Made by a program: the position numbers and the translations under genes
NCBI GenBank assembly: GCA_028826165.1
Contig: JAPDFW010000100.1
Span: forward strand, 173,905-237,904
DNA length: 64,000 bases
DNA from: Anaeramoeba ignava BMAN
Lineage: Eukaryota; Protista; Anaeramoebae
Direction: 5' to 3'
Shown here: positions 3,527-58,871 of the stretch, one piece after another
Layout of the letters: each line of letters begins with the position of its first letter
How positions within the stretch are numbered: the stretch's first letter is position 1
The notes under the pieces: generated by a model
Database searches by the model: none
What the model was told of the DNA's origin: nothing
Seen by the model: only the letters and a program-made list of their open reading frames with translations

Positions 3527-4123
3527 TCACATTAATAAACATTTTCCTTTTTTCTTTTTCTTTTGATTTTGATTATTTTGATTTTCTTTTTGATTTTCTA
3601 TTGTTTTCAATCTTTCAATTTCAAGAAGAATTGTTTCATAAAATATTTGATTAATATTTTCTCCAGTTTTAGCAGAAGTTTCAATAAATTTACAATTTAA
3701 TTCTTTTGCTAATTTTTTTCCTTTTTCAATTGAAACTTCTCTTTTTGTAAATAAATCACTTTTATTTCCAATTAAAACTTTTGGATAATTTTCACAATCA
3801 AAAAATCTCTGAATTTTGTCATGAAAAAATTGAACTTCTTTCAAACTAAGTTTTCTAGTAATTGAATAAACTAAAACAAAAATATTTGATTCTTTGATCC
3901 AATTTTCAATAATTAGAGAATATTCTTCATTTCCTGCAGTATCAATAATTGAAAAATTAATTTGTTCATCATTTAAAGTTATTCTTTTTCGAAAAAAATC
4001 TTCAATAGTTGGATCATATTCTGGAAGAAATCTTTCATCAATAAATTTTGTTACTATTGATGATTTTCCAACTCCTCCAGCTCCAAAAATACACACTTTC
4101 ACTTTTAATTCTTTATCATCCAT
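3527..4123 (-). CDS. Ras-family small GTPase, tandem copy 4
   Basis: GAGGVGKS, YDPTIED, DTAGNEE, NKSD, ETSAK, CLLM. Confidence 0.95.
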   Translation of the reverse strand: MDDKELKVKVCIFGAGGVGKSSIVTKFIDERFLPEYDPTIEDFFRKRITLNDEQINFSIIDTAGNEEYSLIIENWIKESNIFVLVYSITRKLSLKEVQFFHDKIQRFFDCENYPKVLIGNKSDLFTKREVSIEKGKKLAKELNCKFIETSAKTGENINQIFYETILLEIERLKTIENQKENQNNQNQKKKKKGKCLLM

Positions 4124-4217
4124 TTTGATATTTTGATATTTTTTAAAAAGGAGAATAAAAAAATGAAAATGATTTTTTTTTTGAAAAATTTTTTATTTTA
4201 GAAATTTGAAAAGAATT

Positions 4218-4871
4218 TCACATTAATAAACATTTTCCTTTCTTCTTTTGATTTTGATTATTTTGATTTTGATTTTGATTTTGATTATTTTGATTTTGAT
4301 TATTTTGATTTTGATTATTTTGATTTTGATTATTTTGATTTTGATTTTGATTCTTTTTTAATTCTTCAAATTCAAGAAGTAAAGATTCATAAAATATTTG
4401 ATTAATATTTTCTCCAGTTTTAGCAGAAGTTTCAATATATTTACAATTTAATTCTCTTGCTAATTCTTTTCCTTCTTTACATGTGATTTGCCTTTTTGTA
4501 AATAAATCACTTTTATTTCCAATTAAAATTTTTGGATACTTTTTTTCTTCTTTTGAATAATCAGTAATTTTTTGATAAATAATTTTGATTTGATTAAAAC
4601 TCAATCTATCAGTAATAGAATAAACCAAAATAATTCTATCACAATATTCAATAGAGTTATTAAATATAAATTCAGAATCATCACTTGTTGTATCAAGAAT
4701 ATAAATATAAATTGATTCATCATCTAAATCAAATTTTCTTCTAAATCTATTTCCCATTCCCATTTCTATTTCTTCAACAAATTCATTCATTAAAAATCTC
4801 ATTATCATTGATGATTTTCCAACACCTTTGAATCCAAACAAACCAATTCTTATTTCTAAATCATTATCCAT
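4218..4871 (-). CDS. Divergent Ras-family small GTPase, tandem copy 5
   Basis: GFKGVGKS, NKSD, ETSAK, CLLM; effector loop (EEIEMGMG) and G3 (DTTSDD) divergent; (NQ)n hypervariable tail. Confidence 0.9.
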   Translation of the reverse strand: MDNDLEIRIGLFGFKGVGKSSMIMRFLMNEFVEEIEMGMGNRFRRKFDLDDESIYIYILDTTSDDSEFIFNNSIEYCDRIILVYSITDRLSFNQIKIIYQKITDYSKEEKKYPKILIGNKSDLFTKRQITCKEGKELARELNCKYIETSAKTGENINQIFYESLLLEFEELKKNQNQNQNNQNQNNQNQNNQNQNNQNQNQNQNNQNQKKKGKCLLM

Positions 4872-5042
4872 TTTTTTAATTATTAAATAAAAATAAAAAT
4901 GAAAATGAAAATGAAAATGAAAATGAAAATATTTTTACTTTTTTTTTAGTTTAATTTTTGTTCTCAAAGTAAGAAAAAAAAAACAGAAAGAAAAGAAATT
5001 TTTTTTTTTTTGAGGAAAAATAAATGTTGATCTCCTTTTAAA

Positions 5043-27519: not shown

Positions 27520-30500
27520 TCACTTCCTAAAAAATTTTGAACGTTCTTTATCTTTATCTTTATCTTTTTCTTTTTCCTTAGATTTCTCATTTTTCATTTG
27601 TTCAAGAACATCGGAAATAAGTTTAACCCAATCATTAGTAACTTCTTTTGAATCTGAATAAACCAAATAATCACGATATTCGACTGTAATTTTAAAACAA
27701 TTTTTCTTTTTATGATTGGGAAGAAATTCAATAGATCCATCTTTAAGAGGGATAACACCACAAAGATGTGTAGATTTCTTTGATTTAAAATAATACAAGC
27801 ATTGATCATTTTTCAAAACAAACCATCTTTTTCTCCAACCGCTTTTGAGTCCAGTTCCACCGTGTTTTCTTAAAAATCCAGATTTGAGAACTTTTTGAGG
27901 ATCAAACACTGTGTCTGGAAGGAATTTTTTCTCTGCAGGTTGGGTTTGTTTTACTGTTTCTGCCTGAATCAAATCCTTCAAAAAATCGTTTAAATTCAAT
28001 GAAATATTTTCATTAATTGAAATCAAAGTATTTATGAATAGTTTAAGTAAATATGGCGGCATATCTGCCTCGAAACGATGCTTATCAAAAATGAGCCTGA
28101 TCAAAATTTCGTTTGCAGTATCGTCGCAATAGACAACCAGAAGCAACGGATATCTGAGGGATTCATGGATGGAGATTTTCTGGAAAGTGAGTCTCGCTTT
28201 TTCGGTATTAATTTGGAAAATGTAGTTATTTTCACCGACATCGCGGATTGGGATGATAAGATCATTGGGGTATTTTTCAACAAGAAGAACACCGCCATCA
28301 AAGAGATCCTGGGTTTCATGGAGTCCGCACCACTTGCGGATCTGGGATACTGTTGTGTTTGAAAAGTAAGCAGTTTTAGAAAGTCCAAGTTGGATTTGCT
28401 CAATGTGATTTAAAACGCTTTGTTCCTTAACTAACGCGACTCTGAAAGGTAGAACGCGCGAATAATACCCAATCATCTGCTCTATTCCTGGACCCAATAT
28501 TGGAGGCCGTCCGGTAATATATGTTCCGAAACATACATTTGAGAATTTGGAATGAAGAGCAAGTGCAATTGCCCATGAAAAGTGGAAAATGGAAGATAAA
28601 GTGAATTGATTTGATTTTCCGATTTCCTTGAGTTTCTCGAATTTTGAGGCGTCAATTCGCATTGAAATCTCATGGAAAGGTGTTGCATTTAAATGGAATT
28701 GGCCTGTGATTTCACGTGATTCTGTCTCAATTTCTGTGTTGTCTTCAATCATTTCGCCTTTGTCGCCAAAAGGAGTTGTTCTTTTCTTTGTGATTGGAAT
28801 TGAAAAATCAACATCGCCAAAAATATGCTTGAAAAAACGCTTTGCCTCAACGATCTTTGTTGAGTGTTCCCATTCGAGATATTTGAGATACATCAACGAG
28901 GGATTTTTTATGAGATTTATAGGGAAAGAAGGGCGATTTTGTTTCAAAATAGGGTCTTCTTTTTCTGAATGGATAAAATCGCTTTCGGACTCATTTTTAT
29001 ATTCAGAATCTTTCTCAGTATTTCTTGAAAGATCGCCATCCGAAATGGAATCGTTGTTGAATATTGATTGGACATAGTCCTTTGAGGTGATGATATTTGT
29101 TGGCATCGGGACACTTGATTTCCCACCGACTACCAACGCAGTGTATAAGGTGAATGTTTCTTTGATAATAACGGGAAGAGACCAGAAATCGAACATAAAC
29201 GGCTCAAAAGAAAAGATCAAGAGATGTTCTCCTCGACCGTCGACAATAACATGTATAAATCTATAAAGCGGCGGAGAGGCAAAACGGAATGTTTTTTGGC
29301 GATCATCCTTCAGAAGTGATGCTTTCAAATTGAATCTCTGTGTCGCATCGTACTTCTCCCAGCTGATCTCCTTCCAGTTGAGTTCCACAGACTTTCGTGT
29401 GATTTGTAATATGGTGAAGTTATCCTCGTCGTCGTCGTCGTCGTCGGACGGATTGCGAATGAAATACGAGCGCATGATTGGATGTCTTGCAATCATGATT
29501 TCAAGAGCTTTTTTGAAAATCTCAGTGTGAAATTTTCGCGAATGAAAGGAAAGTATGAGTTGTTTGCAGAAATGCTGTTTGACAATCTGGTTTTTTCTGT
29601 GGAAAAACTGGACAATTTCGTGTTGTCCGCGAACAGGAAAAATAACGTCTTCAATTTTGTCATCTTCGGAAAGAATGGCTTGAATTATTGATGTTTTTGA
29701 AGTCAACGAAAACGGGAAATTAATGATTGAATTGAGTTCTTCCTGTTTGAGGAATTCCTTGTACATTTTTGATAGGATTTTCAAGCTGTTTGTGGCCAAA
29801 GAGCGGATATCTTGGGGATTGTTTGTTTTGTGGTTGAAGAGAAATTTAAAATGCAATGCGCCTTTGTGGATGTAAGTGATGATGTTAATTAAATAACTTC
29901 TTGTTTGTTGTTGAGGATAGAAACTTCCGAAAACGGAGTTGTCAACCACAGGCCAATGCTGGACCTCTCCCAATGAGAAGTCGGGCATGTCGATGTCGCC
30001 AAGAAATGTGAAGCTGATTTCGGACTTTTTCAGAGACTCGAGAACCGTTTTGAAATCATTGGGAATCTGTGCGAGGAGTTGGTCGATATCCGATATGTCT
30101 CTTTTTTCAGTGGTTGTTCCTGAAATATTGAAGAAGGAATTAAACGAGTCTTTGTCGTCCTGTTTTGACTTTGTTCGTGTTGGTTGCGTTTTGTTTTGCT
30201 TGGTCTGTCCCTTTATGGGTTCGTTTGCTTGGTTGGTAGACTCGATGGCGTTCGCCTTTTCTTTTTCTACAATTAAATTTTCAACGAATCCAGTGTAAAG
30301 TAAGGAATTTAATTGGTTCAAGAATTTGCGTGATTCGTAAACTTGCTGTTTGACAACCATAAGTGCCTTTTTCTTGTCGGAATTGACTCCTGGAGCTGTA
30401 AAAGAGAGGAGAACAGGGACAAGTAATTCTTGCCAACCCAAGATTTTTGAGTAATTGTAATTGAAAATGGAGGAATTTGTTTTGCGTTGGGAAACAAAAA

Positions 30501-33500
30501 GATGGAAGAATTGGTGGACAGAACCTGTCCATTTGTTCAGAGCAAGGGAAATTGCAGTGAGAATAATTGCAATCAATTCGTCGGGTTGATTCCGGCATAT
30601 TCGACTGAATAAATCAGACGTTATTTTGGAATTGACAGCAAGAACAAGACTGGACTTGTATTCTTGCAGATTTGCGATCCATTGCTGGCCTTCTCTTGGG
30701 AGATACTTAACCGTATTCTGATCGGATACTTTCTTTGCGATTTTTTCCCAAAAGGAGTAGCCTTCTTTTGAGGGTTCTTCGGAAAATTGTTCCGAAATCC
30801 AGTTGAAATGAGGCATCAATTTACTGGTTAATTTCGCTTGAGTTGGATTTGTCATGAATTGATGATACGCGTCGTCTAGATCGTTGGAAAATAGTCTCAT
30901 TGATTCGAGATCAGCGATGAGACGGTGTGAAGAGATGACGAGATAACGTTGATCATCGAGATCTTTAAATGCAACAAAACGGATAAGTGGACCGTTAGTG
31001 ATGTCAAGACTTTTCTGTAATTGTGAGCACATTTGTGACATTGTTGGCGTATTTGGTGTCACTTCAACATACGCAAATGAAAGCTTGATTTCCGCGTTGA
31101 TCTTCATTTTGCGTTTCAGTTTTGTTTCCAAAAAACACATCTTCATTGCTTCGTGATGATCGTAAATCAAATTCAATGATTTCTCAACAATTGGGATCAT
31201 CACATCCTTTTTCAGTCGGATAACAGTCATTATATTATACTGGTTCGGTTGGAAAAAATTCTGTTCGAAAAACCAAGATTGAACTGGCGAAAGTGGACCT
31301 TCATTTTCTTCAAAAAAATCAACGGATTCATTTCTTTTTAAATCTTGAAAGGAATTAATTGCAAAATCTGCAATGTTGAATTTGTTTTTGAGAACAAACG
31401 CCGCAAGATCCGAGATGATCGGATACTGGAAAAGAGCTTGATAAGTGAATTTAACGCCGGCCCTGATCGCCTTGGAAACGATTCTCATTGCGTCTATGGA
31501 ATTGCCACCGAGAACAAAAAAATTATCATTAATGCTAACTCGTTCGTATTTTAAAACAGACGCATAAGTTTGGCACAGAAACTCTTCAACCTCATTAGTA
31601 GGTCTCACCAATGCGCGTTCAGAGTTTTTTCGATCGCCCTTCTGAGCGTCTCTTGTTGTGTGTATTTTGAGTCGATCAATCTTGCCGTCGTTGTTTGTTG
31701 GGAAGCTGTCAACAATTGAGAACGAATCGGGAATCCAACTTGGCGGCAAATGCTCCTTCATAAAAGTCGACAACTCTGTCGATGATGGCGGCACTTCAGT
31801 ATTGGGAGAGATGCACGCAATCATCCGCCGCAGAGACTGTTGTTGTGGATCCCTGATAACGGCAATAACCTCGGAAACTTTTGGATGATTTTGAAGGATG
31901 TTTTCCACACCCCATACATTTACTCGCTCATCCTGATTATATAATGAGTTGATTTCCTTTTCTTGATATCCCAGATGCTCGAGCTCGCCTGAGCTCAAAA
32001 TACATCCTGTTTCTCCCGTTCTGAACATGAGTCCGCCAGAAGGTGAATCCACAAAAAGTAAATCTGTCATTTCTTCATTTTCATAATAACCGCTACACAT
32101 TGATTCCCCACAAACAAACAGTATCCCTTTAACGCCAGGTGGAACTGGTCTGTAATACTCGTCAAGAATAAATATTTCTGTGTCTGCAAATGATTTTCCT
32201 ATAGGTCCTGCGTTTGTTGTGCTTTTTCTCACTGATTGAAGTAATCCATTTTTTTTGATTTCTGAATCGTATAATTTTACTACTGAAATTATTGATGAAT
32301 TTTCTGGGATTCCATAACAATAGATTAATTCTTTCGGTTTCTTTTCCAGCCGCATAAATTCTTCCAATAATTCGAAATCAATTGGATCTCCATAAACAAT
32401 TACTTGCTCAAATTCCTCAAATGGCCATTTTAATTCTTGTTCTGAATTTTCCAATTTTTCATTTTCATTTTTAACTTGATTTTGATTTTTAATTTGATTT
32501 TGATTTTCATTTTGATTTTTAATTTGATTTTGATTTTCATTTTCATTTTTAATTTGATTTTCATTTTCATTTTCATTTTCATTTTTAATTTGATTTTGAT
32601 TTTCATTTTGATTTTGATTTTGATCATTAAAATCCTCTTCAAAAAACTCAAAATCAACCGAACTATCCGAAGATTCATCATTTTTATCAATTTTTTGATT
32701 TTGATTTTGTTGTTTCTTTTTGGGAATTTCCTTTTGTTTTTCTTTTTCTTTTTCTTTTTGTTTTTCCTTTTGTTTTTCTTTTTCCTTCTCAATTTCATTG
32801 AAATTTTCTGCTTCATTAATTAACGCCTCAATTTGTGGGATATTATAAAGCTCCTTACTCAATATTCTCCTGAACGAAAACGTTGTCAGAATAATGACTT
32901 TTGTTGCGAGAAATTTTGTAATGATTGGGAAATTATTGCTAAGTACAAATTTTTTGGATGTGATTGCAAGCTTTCCTCCATTTAAAAGTGTACCCCACAT
33001 TTCAATAATGGCTCTTTCCGAAGAGAGTGGAGAATAATGCGCAATAGAACTGGTCATTCTAAAGTGCTCATAACAAGCAAGAGATTTATTGATAATATTT
33101 GAGTGAGTTATTTGTATTCCGAGCGGTTTTCCTTCATCAGAAAATGTCACTAAAATGCATGCATTATCTTCAGCTTTGATCGCGTTAATGTTTGTGGATA
33201 ATTGCTGTGGTTTGTCATTGCTGTCTTTGTGTATATTATCTATAGTGTCCTCGCTTAAACACATGATTTTCAAAGAATCATCACCAAGAATTTGCGGAAT
33301 TCCAGCAAAAATATCTTGTGTTTTTTGGTCTGTGAACAGTAAATTAATACCAAATTGCTTGATTAATTTGCTATTCAGTTTGTTACTAAATCGCGGATCA
33401 AGGGGAACATAAACACAACCTAAATAATCATTGGAAAATCCAAAAAAAAAATTTTTTTGATTAAAATATTTTTTGATTTAAAAATAATTTTTTTTGATTT

Positions 33501-34755
33501 TTCTCTTTTACCAAGTTTGATAATTGCGAGAATGGTAATTGTAGATGGTATGGAACAAAGCATTGATATTCCAATAAGCGATCCAGACTTGACATTCAGC
33601 TCCTCTTTCATGTATTTTGCAAAGGAATTGGATTTCATATCGAGAGATTCGTAAGTCATTTTTTTAGTTAAAGTTCGAATTGCAATTGCGGTTTTTTTGG
33701 ATTCAACAATTTTCGCGAAGAATTGGATAATATTTTTCTTGCCCAATTTCTGTTGTTTGGGAATATTTGAGAACTGAAAATTTTTGTTCCACTTTTGAAT
33801 AATTTTTTGGTTTTCAAAACGAGTTAAAAGAGGAAAAGAATGAAGTGAAATATCCTCTTTAGAAGACACCAATTTATCAAGAATGGTTGTAAAATGGGAA
33901 GTGAAAAGGGAGATGAAAGAATCGCGAAAACGCGCGGTATTGAAAACTATTCTGTTGTGGAACATAATCTTAGTCTCAATGTCTGATTTCTCGGAATATT
34001 CTTCATCAACTATTAAAATAATTAAATCAAATACTTCAAGTGCTTTGTATTCATATTTTTTTTTCACTCCATTCTTTTCAGGTTTGTTGTTTTCGTTTGT
34101 GTTTTCTTGCTCAGAATTCTCGGCGTTTTCTTGATCAACTGATTCAAAAGATTGATCCAGAACATATTTTGAGTTTTCAAAATTTTCAATTATATTCGAT
34201 GAATCAAAAATAAATAAAATTCGAGTTGGATTTTTCTTGTTGAAATTTTCAAGCAATTTCGAATATAAAGTATCTTTGTATTGCTTGATTTCTTGAATTT
34301 TTTCTGACACATTTTGCAAATATTCTTGAAATGTTTCAAATTCAGAAATATTTGAGTTAAAAAATACTGGATTTATTGGTGATTTTCTTTCTTTCTTCAT
34401 TTCCCTCAATTTTGTCTATCATAATTGCTAGTGAAATGTTATCTGTTGCTACAAAATGAGAAAGAAGAAAAGTGAATGAACTTATAAAAAAATCAAAGTG
34501 TGAAAATTTTGGAAAACATTTCGATATTAAATTGTATTTTTGAAATAGAAAACAATATGAAGAAATGAATGATATTGCGTTTTTTTCATTTTTCTCGTTT
34601 CCATAAAATGATAATTCTTGTATTTTTTTAATTTCTTCATTCCAGAAAATTGTACTTTTTAATTTTAAAAAAAAAATTTTATAATTAAAATTTTAAAAAA
34701 AATTTTTTTTTGCTTTTTTTTAGTTTTGAATTTTCAATTTTTTAACTTACTCCAT
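27520..34755 (-). CDS. Degenerate NRPS-like protein: partial C - A - PCP - E-like - C - PH domain
   Basis: Model: ATGGA|intron|TACA.. (MDTIFWNEEI), frameshift ~34390-34410, intron 33420-33511 joining AIIKLG|CVYVPLDP. A-domain motifs MTYESLD, CYGIPE, GILFVCGESMCSGY, FRTGETG, PTNNDGKIDR; PCP DNFFVLGGNSI; E-type start PLSPVQSWFF; C domain ARHPIMRSYF/CFGTYITGR; PH domain KSGFLRKHGG..WRKRWFVL..LYYFK..DWVKLI. Confidence 0.88.
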
Positions 34756-34922
34756 TTTATTTTTAATAAAGATAAAAATATAAAAAAAAAAAGAAGAAAA
34801 GAAATTAAATTAAAAGAAAAAAAGATTAAAAAAGAAAAAAATGAAAAAATTTTTTATTTTTTTTTTCTCCTTTTTTATTTTTTCATTTTTTTTCTTTTTC
34901 TTTTTAAAAAAAATTTTTTCAA
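34756..34922. promoter_or_regulatory. Compact bidirectional promoter (NRPS-PH/Rab) with TCATTTT elements
   Basis: 167 bp between divergent ATGs; aaaaatgaaaa at ~34840 and tttcattttt at ~34881. Confidence 0.5.
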
Positions 34923-37900
34923 ATGACAAATTTTCAACAATTTGATGAACAATTAAATATTTTATTAGTTGGATTTTCAAGTAAAATTTTAATTTAAAAA
35001 AAAATTTAAATAAAATTAAAATCAAATTAAAATAAAATAAATAAGCAGAAGTTGGAAAAAGTTCTTTAATTCTTAGATTTATTGTAAATTTAATCTAAAA
35101 AGATAAAAAAGACAAAAATAAAAACCAAAACCAAAATAAAAGCAAAACAAAAACCAAAACAAAAATCAAAACAAAAACCAAAATCAAATCAAAACAAAAA
35201 TAAAAACAAAAATCAAAACAAAAACCAAAAACCAAAACAAAAATCAAAACAAAAACCAAAACAAAAACCAAAAACAAAAACAAAAAACAAAACCAAAATC
35301 AAAATCAAAAACCAAAATCAAAAACAAAAATCAAAACAAAAACCAAAACAAAAACAAAAACAAAAACCAAAATCAAAATCAAATCAAAAACCAAAATCAA
35401 AACAAAAACAAAAATCAAAATCAAAACAAAAATCAAAACAAAAATCAAAACAAAAATCAAAACAAAAACCAAAATCAAAATCAAAATCAAAATCAAAACA
35501 AAAACCAAAACAAAATCAAAAATAAAAATCAAAACAAAAATCAAAACAAAAATCAAAATCAAAATCAAAAACAAAAATCAAAACCAAAATCAAAACCAAA
35601 ATCAAAACAAAAATCAAAACAAAAATCAAAATCAAAAATCAAAACCAAAACAAAATCAAAAACAAAAATCAAAACAAAAACAAAAACAAAAACAAAAACA
35701 AAAATCAAAAATAAAAATCAAAACAAAACCAAAATCAAAATCAAAAACCAAAATCAAAAACCAAAACCAAAATAAAAGCAAAACAAAAACCAAAACAAAA
35801 ATCAAAACAAAAACCAAAACAAAAACCAAAACCAAAATAAAAGCAAAATCCAAAATCAAATCAAAAACCAAAATAAAAACCAAAACAAAAATCAAAACAA
35901 AAATCAAAATCAAAAATCAAAACCAAAACAAAATCAAAAACAAAAATCAAAACAAAAACAAAAACAAAAACAAAAATCAAAAACAAAAATCAAAACAAAA
36001 ACCAAAACAAAATCAAAAACCAAAACAAAAACCAAAACAAAAATCAAAACAAAAACCAAAACAAAAACAAAAATCAAAGCAAAAACCAAAACAAAAACCA
36101 AAACAAAAATCAAAACAAAACCAAAATCAAATCAAAAACCAAAATAAAAACAAAAATCAAAACAAAAACCAAAAACCAAAACAAAAACCAAAACCAAAAT
36201 CAAAAACCAAAACAAAAACCAAAACAAAAACCAAAACAAAAATCAAATCAAAAACCAAAATAAAAACAAAAACCAAAATCAAAAACCAAAACAAAAATCA
36301 AAACAAAAACCAAAATCAAAAACAAAAACAAAAACAAAAACAAATATCAAAAATCAAAACAAAAATCAAAACAAAAACCAAAACCAAAATAAAAGCAAAA
36401 TCCAAATCAAAAATCAAAACAAAAACCAAAACAAAATCAAAAACCAAAACAAAAACCAAAAACAAAAACAAAAACAAAAACCAAAATCAAAAACCAAAAT
36501 AAAAACCAAAACAAAAATCAAAACAAAAACCAAAACAAAAATCAAAAACCAAATCAAAAATCAAAACAAAAACCAAAACAAAAACCAAAAACAAAAACAA
36601 AAACAAAAACCAAAATCAAAAACCAAAACAAAAATCAAAACAAAAACAAAAAACAAAAACCAAAACAAAAACAAAAATCAAAACAAAAACCAAAACAAAA
36701 ATCAAAACAAAAATCAAAACAAAAACCAAAAACAAAACAAAAAAACAAATATCAAAAATCAAAACAAAAACCAAAACAAAAATCAAAACAAAAATCAAAA
36801 CAAAAACCAAAACAAAAACCAAAATCAAAAACCAAAATAAAAGCAAAACAAAAACCAAAACAAAAATCAAAACAACCAAAACAAAAACCAAAACCAAAAT
36901 AAAAGCAAAATCCAAAACAAAAATCAAAATCAAAACAAAAACCAAAACAAAAACAAAAACAAAAACAAAAACAAAAACAAAAACCAAAACCAAAATCAAA
37001 AACAAAAATCAAAACCAAAATCAAAAACCAAAACAAAAACCAAAACAAAAACCAAAACAAAATCAAAACAAAAACCAAAATCAAAACCAAAACAAAAACC
37101 AAAACAAAAATCAAAACAAAAATCAAATCAAAAATAATTTTCCTAATTTAATTTTCCTAATTTAATTTAATTTAATTTTCCTAATTTAATTTAATCTAAT
37201 TTAATTTTCCTAATTTAATTTAATTTAATTTAAGGATAATACTTTCGATGAAAATCCTCCAATAACAATTGGATTTACTTTTGTAAATTATATATTTCTT
37301 TATAAATTATTTTATTTTATTTTATTTTATTTAATTTAATATTATTTTAGAAAACTACAATTATTGAACAAGAACAAAAAAGGATTAAATTGAAAATTGT
37401 AAATTATCATTTATTTTATATTATTTTATTTTAATATTAATATTTATTCAACTTTAAAAAATAAAGTGGCATTCTTCAAGTCAAGAAAAATTTATATCTA
37501 GTGTTCGTCATCATTATGGGTATTTTTAAAATTTATCAAGAAATTTATAATGAAATTTAAAATGAAATTTAAAATAAAATTTAAAATGAAATTTAAAATG
37601 AAATTTAAAATTAAATTTATAATTAAATTTATATCAAAATTTATAATTAAATTTATAATGAAATTTATAATGAAATTTAAAATGAAATTTATAATTAAAT
37701 TTATAATTAAATTTAAAATGAAATTTATAATGAAATTTATAATGAAATTTATAATGAAATTTAAAATGAAATTTAAAATGAAATTTAAAATGAAATTTAT
37801 ATCAAAATTTATAATTAAATTTATAATGAAATTTATAATGAAATTTAAAATGAAATTTATAATAAAATTTAAAATGAAATTTAAAATGAAATTTAAAATG

Positions 37901-39758
37901 AAATTTAAAATGAAATTTAAAATGAAATTTATAATGAAATTTATAATGAAATTTAAAATGAAATTTATAATGAAATTTAAAATGAAATTTAAAATGAAAT
38001 TTAAAATGAAATTTAAAATGAAATTTAAAATGAAATTTAAAATGAAATTTAAAATGAAATTTAAAATGAAATTTATAATGAAATTTAAAATGAAATTTAT
38101 AATGAAATTTATAATGAAATTTAAAATGAAATTTAAAATGAAATTTATCAAGAAATTTAAAATGAAATTTAAAATGAAATTTATAATGAAATTTAAAATG
38201 AAATTTATAATGAAATTTATATCAAAATTTATATCAAAATTTATATCAAAATTTATATCAAAATTTAAAATGAAATTTAAAATGAAATTTATAATGAAAT
38301 TTATAATGAAATTTAAAATGAAATTTAAAATGAAATTTATAATGAAATTTAAAATGAAATTTAAAATGAAATTTAAAATGAAATTTAAAATAAAATTTAT
38401 AATGAAATTTATAATGAAATTTATAATAAAATTTAAAATTAAATTTATAATGAAATTTATAATGAAATTTATAATGAAATTTATAATTAAATTTATAATA
38501 AAATTTAAAATGAAATTTAAAATGAAATTTAAAATGAAATTTATAATAAAATTTAAAATGAAATTTAAAATGAAATTTAAAATGAAATTTAAAATGAAAT
38601 TTAAAATGAAATTTATAATGAAATTTAAAATGAAATTTAAAATGAAATTTATAATGAAATTTATAATGAAATTTATAATGAAATTTAAAATGAAATTTAA
38701 AATGAAATTTATAATGAAATTTAAAATGAAATTTAAAATAAAATTTATAATGAAATTTATAAATGAAATTTATAATGAAATTTATAATTAAATTTAAAAT
38801 GAAATTTAAAAATGAAATTTAAAAATGAAATTTATAACAAAATTTATAATTAAATTTAAAATGAGAATTTATAATTAAATTTAAAATTAAATTTATAATT
38901 AAATTTATAATGAAATTTATAACAAAATTTATAATAAAATTTAAAATGAAATTTAAAATTAAATTTAAAATGAAATTTAAAATAAAATTTAAAATGAAAT
39001 TTAAAATGAAATTTAAAATGAAATTTAAAATGAAATTTATCAAGAAATTTATAATTAAATTTAAAATTAAATTTATAATTAAATTTATAATGAAATTTAT
39101 AACAAAATTTAAAATGAAATTTATAATGAAATTTAAAATTAAATTTATAATGAAATTTATAATGAAATTTATAATAAAATTTAAAATGAAATTTAAAATG
39201 AAATTTAAAATGAAATTTATAATAAAATTTAAAATGAAATTTATAATAAAATTTAAAATGAAATTTATAATGAAATTTATAATGAAATTTATAATAAAAT
39301 TTAAAATGAAATTTATAATGAAATTTATATCAAAATTTATATCAAAATTTATATCAAAATTTATATCAAAATTTAAATCAAAATTTATTAGAACTGCAGA
39401 TGCAATTCTTGTTATATATGATATTACAAATCTTGAAACATTTGAATTTGTTAAAACATGGATGGAAGAAATAGAAAAACATTCCAAACCACAAACATTA
39501 AAAATTTTAATAGGAAATAAAGCAGATCTTCGAAAAGAAAGAATTATTAATTACGAAGTTGGAAAAAAAGTTGCAGAATCTCATGGATATTTATTTTATG
39601 AAACAAGCTCAAAAGATTCTGTTAATGTTGAAACTACTTTTAGAACTGCAGTTTCTTCTATTCTTCAACAAGATAGAACAAAAGATTGGGATGAAAATGC
39701 TCCTTTACTTCAAAATGAAAACAAAAAAGAAAAAAAAGAAAAAAAAGGTTGTTGTTAA
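34923..39758 (+). CDS. Divergent Rab-family GTPase, 6 exons, two satellite-expanded introns
   Basis: Spliced MTNFQQFDEQLNILLVGFS|KVGKSSLILRFI|DNTFDENPPITIGFTF|KTTII..IKLKI|WHSSSQEKF..HYG|TADAILVIYDIT..GNKAD..ETSSK..GCC stop. Confidence 0.88.
35100..37230. repeat. Intronic A/C-rich satellite (caaaacaaaaat/caaaacaaaaac) in Rab intron 2
   Basis: Direct inspection; nearly G-free on the + strand. Confidence 0.95.
37530..39385. repeat. Intronic 12-bp satellite (atgaaatttaaa/atgaaatttata) in Rab intron 5
   Basis: Direct inspection; source of the spurious MKFK/NFIL ORFs. Confidence 0.95.
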
Positions 39759-51536: not shown

Positions 51537-54074
51537 ATGTCAAGAATTGGTTTGTTTAATAAATCAAATAATTCACAAATCCCTTTAAAAAAAGTGAAAT
51601 TTCAAACGAATATTATCGATTTTGCTGCAAAAGTTTCTGTTGATCAAGTTTTTGAAAATGAAGAAAAATTTCCTATTGAAACTGTTTTTGTTTTTCCTCT
51701 TAATTCAAATTCTGCAATTTTTGGATTTGAAATTTTAATTAATAACGAAAAAATTATTGGAAAAGTGAAAGAAAAAGAAAAAGCACAACAAATTTACAAT
51801 GATTCAATTTCAAAAGGAAAAACAGCGTAAATAATTTAGGAAAATCAAAACAAAAAAAAAAAAGCAAAAAATTTTTTCGTTTATTATTTTTGAAATATTT
51901 TCGAAAAATTTTTTTTTAGGTTTAAATTAGATCAGGAAACTCCAGATATTTTTGTTACAAATGTTGGGAATTTAGCTCCGAAACAAAGTTGTACAATAAC
52001 AATCCTTTATGTCACAACTCTTTATGAAAATGAAAAAAACCAATATGGATTGTTTTTGCCAACTTCAATAACAAAATGCTATGTTCCACTTTCTGATCAA
52101 GAACGAGCGCAGAATTTAAACAGCCAAACACTCCAATATTCCACAGATATCGGTGTTGATATTGAATTCAGTTTCAGAATCAAAATGAGTTCTCGGATCG
52201 TTTCAATTACTTCAATAACTCATAGTTTGCCAAATCAAATCAATATTGAAAAAAATGAATCAAATTTTTTATTCAGTCCTCAAAAGAAGGAAATTGGGAA
52301 AGATTTTCTCATTTCAATTCAAGAGGAAACCCCTCATGCGCCCAGAGTAATTTCGGAGGTTGATGAAACAGAGGAAATTGTTTCAATGATCACAATGTAT
52401 CCGCAATTGCCGAAAGATAAACTCAACACGGAATTGATTTTCCTAGTTGATCGAAGTGGGAGCATGAGTGGGAAATCGATTGATTATGTCAAATCAACTT
52501 TGGAGCAGTTTCTCCAAATCATCCCCAAATCATCCTATTTCAATATTGTTGGATTTGGGTCTTCTTTTGTGTATTTGTTTCCAAAATCACGGAAATACTC
52601 AAGTGAATCAATCAAAGAAGCTGGTGATCATGTTTCTCAAATGAGCGCAAATCTTGGCGGAACGGAACTGAAGGAACCTTTGAAATCAATATTTGAAAAC
52701 GAACCGCCAGTTGGATTCTCGAGACAAATCTTCTTGCTCACTGATGGAGCTGTGTCAAATACCGAAGAGATCATTTCGCTTGTGAAATCGGAATCAAAGA
52801 CAACAAGGATATTCACTTTTGGGATCGGCCATGGAGCCTCAAAAGAGTTGATTGAGAACATCGCCAAAATCACAAATGCAAATTTCGAGATGATTTTGGA
52901 TCACTCATCAATACAATCTCAAGTTATGAAGCAATTCGAGCGTTCTTTGCAACCTTCGATTACAAATCTCAATATTTCATGGGAAGGCGTCTCTGCCAAG
53001 CATATAACACCTTATTATCTTCCTCCGATTTTCTCAAATCAACGATACTTATTTTTTGCCTTCATCTCAAATCAGAAGGAAAAAGTGGAAAAAGCAACCG
53101 TTATAATTTCAGGACAGATTTTGGATGAGAAAGTGGAATGGAAATTGGATTTCAATCCGCAAAACTTGCAAAGAGACTCAACTCTTCATAAATTAGCAGC
53201 AAAATCAATGATCAAGGATCTGGAACAGAAATCAAGTTCTTTCCACACAAAGATGGGGAAACTCAAAAAGGGATTAAGAAAAGAAGCTGTTGAACAGGAA
53301 ATTCTCAGATTGAGTCTGAAAAACCAAATTGTTTCTTCTCAAACAAGTTTTGTTTCTTATGTTCAAGATCCCTTAAATTTGAACCATTTCCAAGAAATGA
53401 AATTTGTTCCCATTGAAATACAATCCCCAACTCAATCCTCTCCCAAAAAAAATACCCGCAAATCATCCTTTAATAACTTTTCTTGTTTTGCTCAAAGAGT
53501 AACAAGATCCGAATTTTCCCAAAAAGAAGATTTTCAAGAAGATCAAAAAAATTTCCACAAAATGGAAAAGGAAGTCCATCAAGTTTTACATGAAATTTAT
53601 CAAGAAATGGGAAAAGATTCTCCTGTGGAAATTTATAAAAGAATGAACGAGAGAGAAGAACAAAAAGATGTGGAGATTACTGAAGTTTTCAAACAAAAAA
53701 TTCTTGAAAAACATCTTGAATCATTGGAAAAAATTAAAAACGAAAATTTTCAAATTCCAAAAATTGTTTTGAATGTTGGTTCTTTTGACATCATTTCTTC
53801 ATCACAAACCCAAGAAGGAAATTGGGAAATTTCTCAAGAATTATGTTCTGCTGTTGGTATTTCGCAAGAAGTTATTGAAAATTCAAATCCTTTTATAAGT
53901 TTTTCTTTGAAAACTTGGTTCAATATTTTAATTATTTCTTTAATTCAAGTTTGTTTTCCTAAATTTATTCAAATCTCTAAAAAAGCAGAAGAATGGTTAA
54001 AAAAAGAAGAAATTCAAAACATTGATTTAATAATTGAAGAAACAAAAAGAAGGATTTTTATAAGAGATTTTTAA
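51537..54074 (+). CDS. VIT + vWA domain protein (VWA5A/PARP4-like)
   Basis: VIT (QVFENEEKFPIETVFVFPL..KEKEKAQQIY), intron 51827-51919, vWA MIDAS FLVDRSGSM, ANLGGTEL, FLLTDG, RIFTFGIG. Confidence 0.92.
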
Positions 54075-54385: not shown

Positions 54386-54946
54386 CTATAAAATGGAACA
54401 AAATTTCTTTTTGCGTTCAGGAAGAACAGATTGAGGATTCAAAGAGATTCTATTCATTTCTCTTGCCAAAAAATGGAAAGGATCTTCAACGTTTGTTCTA
54501 AGTTTAGCAGAAGTTTCAAAATAACGAGAATTTTTTTGCTTAGCGAATTTTTCCGCTTCAACAAAATCAACACATCTATCTTTTTCCAAATCTGATTTAT
54601 TTCCAACAATGACAATAGGGAATTTATCAGTTTCTTTAACTTTATAAATTTGGGAAATAAGATTCGGGACAGATTCATAAGATTCACGATCAACAAGAGA
54701 AAAAACAATAATAAAACCGTCACCAGATCTTAAATGAGTATCATGAATAACTGAGAATTCTTCTTGTCCTGCTGTGTCAAGAAGATCCAATACATAAACT
54801 TCATCGTCTAATTCAATTTGCCTTCTATAAATGTCTTCTATTGTTGGTTCATATGCATCTACAAATTTCCGATGAACAAATTGTAATGTTAATGCTGATT
54901 TGCCAACTCCTCCAATTCCAATTATTACTACTTTGAAATTTGGCAT
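54386..54946 (-). CDS. Canonical Ras/Rap-family GTPase
   Basis: GIGGVGKSALT, YEPTIED, DTAGQEE, NKSD, ETSAK, CaaX CSIL. Confidence 0.97.
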   Translation of the reverse strand: MPNFKVVIIGIGGVGKSALTLQFVHRKFVDAYEPTIEDIYRRQIELDDEVYVLDLLDTAGQEEFSVIHDTHLRSGDGFIIVFSLVDRESYESVPNLISQIYKVKETDKFPIVIVGNKSDLEKDRCVDFVEAEKFAKQKNSRYFETSAKLRTNVEDPFHFLAREMNRISLNPQSVLPERKKKFCSIL

Positions 54947-55944
54947 GTTTTTATTTTATTAAATTTTTTTTTTTTTTTCAATTTGAAAATGTAACTAAAA
55001 AAAAAAGCAAAAAAAAATTTTTAAAATTGACGAAAAAAGCAATTTTGTAATTTAAAAAAATAAAAACAGAAAAAAATGAAATTTTATTTTTCTTTAATTT
55101 TTTTTTTTAATTTTTTTTTTTAATAAGCGAATTTTTTTTTTTTTTGAATAAAAAAAATTTTTTTTTCTCCTTTTTTTTAAATTTTTAAAAATTTTTTAAA
55201 GAATTTTTATTAAATAAATATAAAAATAAATATTAAATTAAATATAAAAAGTGGAATAAATATTAAATTAAGCATAGAAATAAATATAGAAATAAATATT
55301 AAATCAATTTATAAATAAATATTAAATTAAATATTAATTCAATTTATAAATAAATATTAAAATAAATATAAAAAAAATATTAAATTAAATATTAAATTAA
55401 ATATAAAAAAAGTGGAATAAATAAATATAAAAAAAGTGGAATAAATATTAATTCAATTTATAAATAAATATAAAAAAAATGGAATAAATAAATAATAGAA
55501 ATAAATAAATAAAAAAAAAAATATTAGAAATAAATATTAAAATTTAGAAATAAAAATAAAATAAATATAGAATTTAAAAATAAATATAAATATTAAAAAT
55601 TAAATATAAAAATTTTGGAATAAAAATAAAAAATGGAATTAAATTAAATATAAATTTAGAAATAAATATTAAAAATAAAATATTAAAAAAAATAAATTAA
55701 CTCAATTTTTAGAAATAAATATAAAAATGGAATAAATAAATATTAGAAATAAATATTAGAAATAAATATTAAATTAAATATTAAAATAAAAAATTAAAAT
55801 AAAACAGTATTTAAAGATGTTTTAATTAAAAAAAAAGAAATAAAAAATTTTTTTTAATTAAATTTTTTTCATTTTTTTACTTTTATTTAAAAAAAAGCGA
55901 AAAAAAAACTTAATTAAAAAATTAAATTTAAATTAAATTAAAAA

Positions 55945-58871
55945 ATGGCAGATAGACAACAAGAAAGAGAAGATCTTATAAGTAATAAAATTATTGCAGA
56001 AATCAAAATTAAAAAATTAAAAGAATTTAGAGGAGAATTAAAAGAACATTTCAATTCAGTTGAAGAAGAATTAAAAAAACATGAAAATGATCCAATTAAT
56101 TATATAACTCAACTTCAAAAAGGATTAAATGAAGCAAAATTCGCACAAGAATCACTTCATGAACCAATAGATCTTGGTGCACTTTTTTATGAATATCAAC
56201 AAGGAAATCAAGAAATTTGTGATAATATTCTTGATGAACATAAACAAAAATTATTAAAACAAATGCAACAAATTAAAAACAGAGGAGAATTAGTTTATCT
56301 TTATGGAAAAATATTAGAAGAACAAGCAAATTATGATGAAGAACAATATATTGAAAGACAACAAGAAAGAGAATTAGCAAAAAAACAAAGAAAAGAACAA
56401 CTTGATAATGAAAATAACAATAATAATAATAATGATGAAAAAGAAAAAGATGAGAAAAAAGATGAGAAAAAGATGAAAAAAAAGAACCAGTTAAAAAAAC
56501 TTGGAAAGAAAGACTTGAAGAACATAAAAAAGAATATTCTAAATTATGGGCTCCTAAAACAAAACAAGAAATTGAAGTTCCTGAAGAATATATTAATTCA
56601 ATTTTTGATTTAATGGATCAAGAAATTTTAGAAATGGCAAGATTAAATGTTAAAAGTTTTATTGAAAATGAATTATTAGCACTTGTTCAAGAAGAAGAAT
56701 TAAAATATGTTTTGAGTTTTATTCGTAAAAATATTCATATGCCTGGATTTTTTAGACAAAATGCATCTGGAATACTTAGATCTGAATTAAAACTTTCTGA
56801 ATGGACTGGTGCTTTAACAATTTTAATTTCTAAATTTAAAGAATTTAAATGGAATGAAATAACATCACTTAGAAGTATTTTTACAAGAAAAAGATTTAGA
56901 ATATTTTTGAAAGAAGATTTTATGACACTTGTTTTAACTAATTTAATTGGATTAAGATGGCAAATGAAATTAAAACAAATTTTAAGAACACTTCATCATT
57001 CTGGAATTAATTTCCCTTCTTTTGTTAATCATTCATCAGCAATCCAATACAGAAAACAAAAAGTACATTCATTATTTATGCCATTTTGTCCTGATAATTT
57101 ATATGATTATCAAAATGTTGATAATTATGGACAAACAAGATTTTCAACAAATCAAACACAAGGACCTGATTCTTTTCAAAAATTATTATGCCATTTAAAT
57201 GGAGAATTATCATTTTTAAGAGCTGTTTTTCCAGAAAGATCATTAGCATTTTTTAGAACTGATATTAAAGATTATTTCCCAAGAATTCAACACAATACAC
57301 TTCTTTATATATTAAAGAAAATAGGAGTTACAGATGATTGGATTGAATTTTTTAGAAAATTTCTTGAAGTTGTTGTTCATATTGAAGGAGAAACATACGT
57401 TTGTCAAAGAGGAATTCCATTAGATCACAGTCTTTCAATTTTATTTAGTGATTTAATGTTATGGTTAATGGATGTATCAGTATTTAAAAAAACTGATGTT
57501 GAATTAATTAGAGCATTAGATGATATCTTCTTTATTACAGTTGATACTGAAAGAGCAACCAGAGCATTTAAAGAAATTGAAAACTTTTGTTCTAAAATGG
57601 GATTTGAATTAAATTATGATAAAACTGGATATTCATTTAGTGATGGAAGTAAAATTGAAGAACTTGAAAACAAAACCAAAGAAATCAAATGGGGATTATT
57701 AAAATTAAAAGATTGTGATTGGATAATAAGTGATGAAAGTTTAAAAGAAGTTCTTGATGGATTTAAAGATGCAATTTCATTTGATTCACCAGTTTTAACA
57801 ATTATTTCATTATGGAATAGTTATATTCATTATATTATCAAGAATTTAGGAATATTTGTTTATTTAGGAAAAGAACATCTTAATAATGTTTCTAAAAAGA
57901 TCAAAGAAATTGAAAAAGAAATATTTGGAGAAAAAGGAATTGTTAAATTAATTAAAGAAAAGATATTAGAAAGATTTGGAGAAGGAAACATTAAAGATAT
58001 TCCATTAGGATTTATTTTCTTACCATTAGAATGTGGAGGGCTTGGATTATTTCAACCTAATATTTACATTTACACATTCAAACAAAGTTCAGATTACAGA
58101 GTTGAAAAACCAACAACATTAAAACAATCAACAGAAGATCTTGGATTTGGATTATCACCATTTACACAATATGGAACAACATCATTATTACAACAACAAA
58201 ATCAAATGTTTTCAAATCAATATGGAGGAGGATTTGCAGCAAAAAAATCAGCATTTGGATTTGGGCCAAGATACACTTCTTCATCAATGAAATCAACATC
58301 AATGAAAGCAGTTCCTAAAATGATGGCTAAAAGAAAAGTATTTGGAAGAGCTAAATCCAAAAGCAAACCAATATTTGCCAAAATTGAATCAGAATCTGAT
58401 GAATATGAAGATGAATATGATGATAATGAAAAAGATATAAAAGATAAAAAAGGAGGAAAAGAAGAAAAAGAAGAAGAAGAATTAAAAGTGCCAGGAATTC
58501 CAGATTTTTTTAATTGTCCTGAAATGTTATTAAATCAAGAATATGGATATTTTTATAATCAACTTCAACAACCATTAGATCAAAGTGGACCATCACATCA
58601 TAATGTTGATTTATCATCACAATATTCATATGGATATGGATATGGATATGGAGGAGGAGGAGGAAGATTTGGATATAGATCAAAAATGATGGCAAGAAGA
58701 AGAGCAAGACCAAGAACAACAACAGCAAGTTATACAACACCATATCATATTTGGTTATTCCATATTTATGATGATTTAAAAGATTTTGCAGGCAAACTTG
58801 ATTATCAACATCCTGATTTAATTCCATCAATTTTAATCAAACAAATCAAATCAAATCAAAGAAATTTATAA
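55945..58871 (+). CDS. rvt: rvt-type cellular reverse-transcriptase-related protein (one gene; 1-nt frameshift at A-run 56467-56471)
   Basis: N-terminal coiled coil; EDFMTLVLTNLIGLRW; RT motifs RTDIKDYFPRIQH, RGIPLDHSLSILFSDL, IRALDDIFF, NYDKTG, IKWGLLKL; thumb/C-terminal WNSY, GKEHL, IPLGFIFLPLECGGLGLFQP, YHIWLFHIY..DLIP. These match the rvt layout as recalled; no endonuclease, RNase H or integrase domain. Confidence 0.85.

Follow-up and report, generated by a model that had tools for sequence, protein, structure and literature searches.

Some domains of bacterial nonribosomal peptide synthetases (NRPSs) are known to be inactive. The X domain, for example, recruits cytochrome P450 enzymes (P450s), and the PyrG adenylation (A) domain, which lacks the A3 residues and the lysine, is non-functional (PMC10510592). 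In eukaryotes, DIP2 offers a precedent for adenylate-forming domains in lipid biology, with fatty acyl-AMP ligase (FAAL)-like domains that act on diacylglycerol (PMC9342972). Pleckstrin homology (PH) domains that bind phosphatidylinositol 3,4,5-trisphosphate (PI(3,4,5)P3) carry the signature K-Xn-(K/R)-X-R (PMC3216653). Here, we describe a gene of the protist Anaeramoeba ignava BMAN in which an NRPS module is joined to a PH domain. It lies at positions 27520-34755, on the minus strand, of a 64,000-nucleotide stretch of contig JAPDFW010000100.1 (positions 173,905 to 237,904; assembly GCA_028826165.1), hereafter the window.

NRPS products of Anaeramoeba have been proposed to select the bacteria that colonise the symbiosome (PMC11550330). 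The main text of that study mentions NRPS genes once, and the term 'PH domain' is absent from it. NRPS passages in a preprint on A. pumila concern its bacterial symbiont. In the literature searched, which leaves most subscription journals outside, no description of an NRPS-PH fusion was found, although the domains themselves are visible in automated annotation. The same literature yielded no case of a whole NRPS module acting as a stand-alone pseudoenzyme. One paper containing NRPS, PH and fusion terms was set aside, as the places where it uses them are unrelated.

The architecture is real, intact and apparently undescribed, and a single protist species has expanded it to four copies or more. 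To judge from its motifs, the module has lost most catalytic residues, while the gene is intact and spliced. On balance, it is probable that an NRPS fragment gained by lateral transfer has been retained as a pseudoenzyme scaffold that is likely brought to membranes containing phosphoinositides.

Architecture of the gene and its paralogues

The gene is divided into the following features.

34751-34755, minus strand: exon 1, the start codon plus 2 nt, read from the sequence; the start is shared with the NCBI model (P0123) and paralogue P0124
34655-34750, minus strand: intron 1, 96 nt, GT..AG, from splice signals and the NCBI model; outside run-contig coverage
33512-34654, minus strand: exon 2, C-terminal half of a condensation (C) domain and start of the A domain, from Pfam and Atlas clusters
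33420-33511, minus strand: intron 2, 92 nt, GT..AG, within the A domain, from splice signals; skipped by a contig of run X4
31660-33419, minus strand: main part of the A domain, with substitutions in A3, A4, A7 and A8 but with the Glu of A5 and the Lys of A10 retained
32434-32868, minus strand: insert in the A domain, about 145 aa of low-complexity N/E/K/Q sequence, with mostly low predicted local distance difference test (pLDDT) scores
31393-31581, minus strand: peptidyl carrier protein (PCP) domain, serine kept (LGGNS), Pfam PP-binding E 1.6e-08
29749-31308, minus strand: epimerization (E)-type domain; catalytic His replaced by Arg, EGHGR glutamate lost
27973-29646, minus strand: DCL-type condensation domain with HHxxxDG replaced by EPFMFDF; assigned by best profile (DCL), tree and fold-search matches, which are C domains
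27607-27888, minus strand: PH domain, Pfam E 2.7e-17, K-Xn-(K/R)-X-R intact, pLDDT mostly near 90
27520-27606, minus strand: charged C-terminal tail and stop codon

The coding sequence (CDS) comprises 2348 codons and, once spliced and freed of one extra base, has no internal stop. Its main open reading frame (ORF; 33477-27520, minus strand) measures 1985 aa from stop to stop; a first-pass annotation, counting the same ORF from an internal TTG, had given 1917 open codons. That annotation had also proposed two spliceosomal introns and host-style inserts, and both are present. Contigs of four sequencing runs (X1, X2, X4 and X6) were aligned over 32810-34790, X1 and X2 being one sample and possibly the source of the window. 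Exactly 92 nt, corresponding to intron 2, are skipped in one X4 contig, whose short side spans only 21 letters, and are kept in X1 and X2. Run X4 is not on record as RNA, nor is any other run listed as containing the sequence, which tells neither for nor against transcription.

In the window assembly, the frame of exon 2 is shifted by one extra base near 34380. This base is absent from all three runs that cover it (X1, X2 and X4; X6 does not reach there), and without it exon 2 realigns with the paralogue in an open CDS. The frame break is therefore likely an assembly error. The corresponding protein record, KAJ5070019.1 (P0123; 2327 aa, titled 'NONRIBOSOMAL PEPTIDE SYNTHETASE'), is identical to the window CDS over 93 residues at its start and 2229 at its end, and lacks 21 residues in the region of the break. 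The NCBI model places a 64-nt intron in exon 2. We rejected it as an artificial bridge over the extra base, one that costs the model 21 residues present in the paralogue.

The protein is laid out as half-C, A, PCP, E, DCL-type C and PH, all in one reading frame, and the order given by the first-pass annotation is thus borne out by the Pfam scan, class profiles and tree. On the main ORF, Pfam recovers Condensation (three stretches), AMP-binding, AMP-binding_C, PP-binding and PH. The half-C of exon 2 has a weak Condensation match (positions 295-455, E 0.0086) and matches Atlas clusters at 0.97, all of them generic Condensation clusters. For the class profiles, comparison domains were sorted by context (259 E, 212 DCL and 161 LCL found; 70 of each used), and the E domain scores 126 bits against E, 90 against LCL and 44 against DCL. 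A FastTree phylogeny of 40 domains of each class and eight Anaeramoeba domains places the four Anaeramoeba E domains with all 40 E domains (support 1.0). Their four C domains sit inside a DCL clade (0.884) that includes five rule-labelled LCL domains.

Structure prediction agrees with these assignments. The predicted A-domain fold resembles other A domains, with a template modelling (TM) score of 0.73 to 4d4i by target length. An AlphaFold model of A-PCP-E (mean pLDDT 72.8) keeps the folds and leaves the insert disordered; this insert is shorter or missing in the paralogues. By sequence and structure, the best PDB matches are bacterial multimodular NRPSs, and C, A, PCP and E domains follow one another in assembly-line order. 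Because this order matches bacterial assembly lines, the piece from half-C to DCL domain looks like one contiguous excerpt, with the PH domain placed where the next A domain would begin. Neither a release domain (thioesterase, TE, or reductase, R) nor a downstream acceptor module was found in the protein or among the 23 window ORFs scanned, and the protein has no hydrophobic N-terminal stretch.

For the PH domain, the nearest solved relatives are those of myosin X, PLEKHA6, cytohesins and DAPP1. This copy has both the PH fold and the phosphoinositide motif, which is intact here and in P0274 (two of the four paralogues). The A. ignava PANTHER rows list 12 phosphatidylinositol kinases and six PTEN-like proteins (PMC11550330 supplement).

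At least four A. ignava paralogues share the whole architecture, the other three being P0124, P0274 and P0275. They are 2327-2405 aa long, with identities to this copy of 72, 32 and 31%. Homologues were sought by word search and by a full HMMER scan with the last 866 residues. Two A. ignava proteins of EukProt that combine NRPS and PH domains came from the word search, and two further A. ignava relatives (36% and 33%), each with one continuous match across C and PH, from the HMMER scan. Word-index searches are insensitive and missed paralogues at 31-36%, hence their blanks carry little weight. Three paralogues stand in EukProt as single 'complete' ORFs bearing NRPS and PH domains; from their names, these ORFs appear to derive from transcripts. 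P0003, the EukProt entry nearest this copy, matches it as far as a stretch of 28 residues that P0124 has as well, and matches P0124 for the last 433 residues, a mosaic that is either a transcript-assembly chimera or the product of gene conversion. As P0003 switches to P0124, it gives no confirmation of the C-PH junction of this copy, which the genomic frame does provide.

Beyond this family, the searches made revealed no NRPS-PH fusion. Among 405 fetched non-Anaeramoeba matches (nine with PH), which are not a census, none of the 396 A- or C-domain proteins carries NRPS and PH domains together. A query with the PH domain gave ten matches among proteins of 224-2000 aa and no new NRPS fusion. No A. 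flamelloides member was recognised among the best 150 of 15308 HMMER matches, whose rows are unnamed and of which five proteins were looked up. According to the supplement of PMC11550330, antiSMASH reports three 'NRPS' regions per A. flamelloides strain, and seven NRPS and one NRPS-like region in A. ignava. PANTHER rows there place six A. ignava proteins in two families, three of the proteins being these paralogues, with none for A. flamelloides and one for Kipferlia. Up to two more family members are possible beyond the four studied. One candidate, M0811_06030, is numbered beside the NRPS-like genes M0811_06028 and 06029 (PMC11550330 supplement file 14).

The four paralogues form one clade in the A, E and C trees (support 0.996-1.0) and are long-branched. 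The A tree used 114 of 881 sequences, and both it and the C/E tree are unrooted. Identity of the A, E and C domains to comparison domains is about 20-27%, and all named non-Anaeramoeba NRPS matches from the word-index searches are bacterial. The NRPS part was probably acquired laterally from a bacterial multimodular NRPS. The unrooted, long-branched trees resolve no donor; the nearest A-domain neighbour was rejected as one, being itself divergent and likely placed there by long-branch attraction. Gene transfer into A. ignava is reported to be frequent (PMC11550330), and a term search of the transfer supplement to that study did not find these genes.

Selective loss of catalytic residues

The A domain was audited at 16 ligand-binding or catalytic positions, chosen by us from motifs A3, A4, A5, A7, A8 and A10 in PheA numbering. 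The four paralogues keep 6, 5, 2 and 4 of these residues (this copy, 6). By comparison, at least 12 of the 16 are kept in 872 of 877 comparison A domains, including all 22 with no more than 30% identity to the consensus. The other 42 highly conserved A columns behave differently: 20-27 are kept in the paralogues, against 18-27 in the 15 most divergent comparison domains. The loss of ligand-binding residues is thus selective at the level of sequence, because the remaining conserved columns are kept as in the most divergent comparison domains.

Ser and Gly of A3, Lys of A3, Asp of A4, Asp of A7 and Arg of A8 are changed in all four paralogues (motif roles as in PMC10510592). The A10 Lys is kept in two (P0123 and P0124). 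Of the A3 loop, the A7 TGD, the A8 Arg and the A10 Lys, which a functional A domain combines, this copy has only the last. All four paralogues have EP or ES in place of HH in the DCL domain and so lack both histidines, with the Asp kept. The second His of the E domain is gone in three of the four, and EGHGR is gone in both paralogues where it could be aligned. This copy has neither an intact HHxxxD(G) in its C and E domains nor the EGHGR glutamate. Among comparison domains, the His motif is kept in 339 of 342 E and 408 of 433 DCL domains.

The PCP has fared otherwise. Its modifiable serine is present in three of the four paralogues, this copy included, and is replaced by Glu in P0275. Relative to bacterial baselines, it is the best-conserved NRPS domain, with 49-61% identity among distant paralogues (comparison median 49%), against 27-40% for A, E and C (comparison medians 36-39%). 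PH identity among distant paralogues, at 45-52%, is also above that of A, E or C.

All altered motifs quoted in the first-pass annotation are present: TFSDEGKPLG at 33147-33118, TGE within 32025-32011, SHRLIAD at 30930-30910 and EPFMFDF at 29205-29185. The erosion goes further than listed there: motifs A3, A4 and A8 have also lost Lys, Asp and Arg, respectively, and the epimerase has lost its Glu. The same annotation regarded the PCP serine and A10 lysine as kept, which holds for this copy (LGGNS at 31512-31498; GKIDR within 31689-31672) and, across the family, for only three and two of the four members, respectively.

A probable pseudoenzyme scaffold and its rivals

Taken together, sequence and predicted structures suggest a pseudoenzyme, with the fold kept, catalytic residues selectively lost, and the gene intact and conserved. 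Given the lost catalytic residues and the PH fusion, the proteins are likely membrane-docked scaffolds rather than peptide makers, and the residues argue strongly against peptide synthesis by these four genes. A single entry into the lineage may have brought in a contiguous segment of a multimodular NRPS from bacteria, with one end within a C domain and the other after the DCL domain. Fusion of this segment to a PH domain of the host would have followed, as would the gain of introns and inserts and then duplication. The product would be a soluble cytosolic protein that docks through its PH domain on 3-phosphoinositide membranes, whether phagocytic, endosomal or symbiosomal. There, about 2000 residues of folded C, E and A lobes could be offered as binding surfaces, much as the inactive X domain offers one to P450s. 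The PCP would likely persist to provide a docking arm within the protein, one that could be modified in three of the four paralogues.

Several observations weigh against this scaffold explanation. Lipid specificity is not uniform across the family, given that P0124 has Glu and P0275 has Gln in place of the first Lys of the PH motif. The AlphaFold model of C-PH, built from a poor 16-row alignment, has a predicted TM score (pTM) of 0.36 and a mean pLDDT of 57.5; its PH domain is confident, its relative domain position undefined, and it carries no information on domain contact. Five of the 877 comparison A domains are eroded too, keeping only 4-9 of the 16 key residues, which means that part of the decay could predate transfer. 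(These five lie in the large NRPSs P0232, P0155, P0162 and P0262, which are intact assembly lines.) This copy retains the A10 Lys, A5 Glu and PCP Ser, and several C domains are active without the second His (PMC10510592). All family members known here come from one species. Finally, shared A-site substitutions are invariant at 2 of 16 positions, not above the 18% background invariance, and no new active or binding site is therefore evident; such substitutions were rejected as a mark of one. The first-pass annotation had seen a domesticated bacterial-type NRPS targeted to phosphoinositide membranes. Its bacterial origin, the real fusion and the loss of catalysis as the likely state all stand, while the full PH motif is found in only two of the four paralogues.

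Some rivals keep a role for the PCP or for catalysis. The proteins might be membrane-targeted carriers or metabolite sensors, in which a host phosphopantetheinyl transferase (PPTase) gives the PCP its phosphopantetheine arm and another enzyme loads this arm in trans. The clefts of the dead E and C domains would then read the loaded arm and switch the conformation of the protein at the membrane. Such a role, which we regard as rather unlikely, would fit the strong constraint on the PCP and its retained serine. One PPTase, M0811_12138, is listed in the A. ignava PANTHER rows (PMC11550330 supplement). It is no evidence that this PCP is modified, because the genome holds other NRPS-like proteins. 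Four of these, in family PTHR44845, which we take to be A-T-R-like (T, thiolation), could be the PPTase clients. Moreover, the PCP of P0275 is conserved as well as the others despite its Ser-to-Glu change, and no loading enzyme was identified. A second reading, which we hold to be improbable, is that P0123 and P0124 remain enzymes with changed chemistry, adenylating an unusual substrate or transferring an acyl group at the membrane. Both keep the A10 Lys, A5 Glu, A3 Thr and PCP Ser, their A4 and A7 changes from Asp to Glu are conservative, and the E domain of P0124 keeps HHxxxD. Some C domains also work without the His (PMC10510592), and DIP2 supplies a precedent. However, the A3 phosphate-binding loop, A3 Lys and A8 Arg are lost in all four paralogues and the A10 Lys in two, there is no release domain, and DIP2 needs catalytic activity, unlike the pattern here (PMC9342972).

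Decay or error would leave no function to explain. Long branches, low-complexity inserts, uneven motif loss among paralogues and restriction to one species would suit duplicated foreign genes drifting to loss, with the PH fusion incidental. Yet four open frames of 2334-2405 aa persist down to about 31% identity, and divergence is concentrated in the inserts (8-47% identity, against 25-51% for the folded A, E and C parts of distant pairs). This copy is also spliced in run X4, and we consider the relic explanation quite improbable. It is scarcely credible that the fusion is an artefact in which misassembly or contamination has linked a bacterial NRPS with an adjacent PH gene of the host. The gene does contain a single-base assembly error, P0003 is a mosaic, and the C-PH junction of this copy lies outside the read-contig check. 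The same fusion, however, occurs at four loci on contigs of four different lengths, and the gene studied here has an unbroken frame from C to PH, spliceosomal introns and eukaryotic neighbours (Rab-type GTPases, TRAPPC10 and a protein O-mannosyltransferase). In addition, 97-98% of the words of 27600-32200 are present in four runs, of which three may be the source of the window. The four loci and single frame largely dispose of the concern, raised in the first-pass annotation, that the PH domain might be a separate gene or a misassembly.

A more speculative extension of the scaffold explanation is that the family serves as an NRPS-derived receptor or adaptor for managing symbionts, which we think possible but doubtful. 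The PH domain would deliver the proteins to the membrane of the phagosome or symbiosome; there, the clefts of the dead A, E and C domains might bind bacterial or symbiont metabolites or sense acylation of the protein's own phosphopantetheine arm. The bound state could then be relayed to the trafficking machinery.

For these four genes, the evidence favours a structural or signalling role at membranes over a peptide product. If true, the 'secondary metabolite' genes of a symbiont-housing protist read differently, and the family would show how a metabolic gene of foreign origin can be put to use in the membrane biology of a eukaryote. It also indicates that dead enzymes can be included when the NRPSs of protists are counted automatically.

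Window setting and comparison with known systems

The window is very AT-rich and eukaryotic, with a GC content of 11-25% in most 2-kb bins and 30-40% over the NRPS-PH gene. GC at third codon positions is 0.36 in 27520-33417, whereas nine other ORFs of the window have 0.07-0.28; codon use linked to expression, or a foreign origin, could account for this. The 23 scanned ORFs include three Ras-family GTPases, TRAPPC10, a protein O-mannosyltransferase and Paf67/eIF3L. The three Ras-family (Rab-like) ORFs lie at 3527-4934 and 54386-54955, all on the minus strand, and two are in tandem beside TRAPPC10. An 801-aa ORF at 56466-58871 (plus strand) has a reverse transcriptase match (RVT_1, E 1.2e-08), and near it, at 51894-54074, lies a VWA/VIT protein with a weak deoxynucleoside-kinase match. 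Upstream of the NRPS-PH gene, 35112-39327 holds tandem arrays of a 6-mer (about 330 copies) and a 12-mer (about 150 copies), which yield spurious ORFs.

Bacterial NRPSs with A-PCP-E followed by a DCL domain, such as tyrocidine TycA/TycB, gramicidin LgrA, pyoverdine PvdL and bacitracin synthetase 3, share the domain order and folds of the A. ignava protein. The latter differs in its lost catalytic residues, half-C start, PH end and introns, and in having no release domain or next module. The glycopeptide X domain, the inactive E domain of LgrA and the first A domain of PyrG likewise have a C- or A-type fold without catalytic residues (PMC10510592). Those domains sit within working bacterial assembly lines, whereas the A. 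ignava protein appears to be stand-alone and eukaryotic, with all three catalytic domains eroded and a membrane-targeting domain added. DIP2 has, to our knowledge, no C, E, PCP or PH domain. Its adenylate-forming domains are likewise used in eukaryotic membrane and lipid biology, and it depends on catalytic activity, unlike the A. ignava protein (PMC9342972). Cytohesin/Grp1, DAPP1, myosin X and PLEKHA proteins are kin of the PH domain, whose signature motif is intact in this copy. Their effector parts are guanine nucleotide exchange factor (GEF), adaptor or motor domains rather than an NRPS module, and two A. ignava paralogues lack the first Lys of the motif. By analogy with these systems, the A. 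ignava protein may combine the workings of an X-domain platform with those of an anchor of the cytohesin type.

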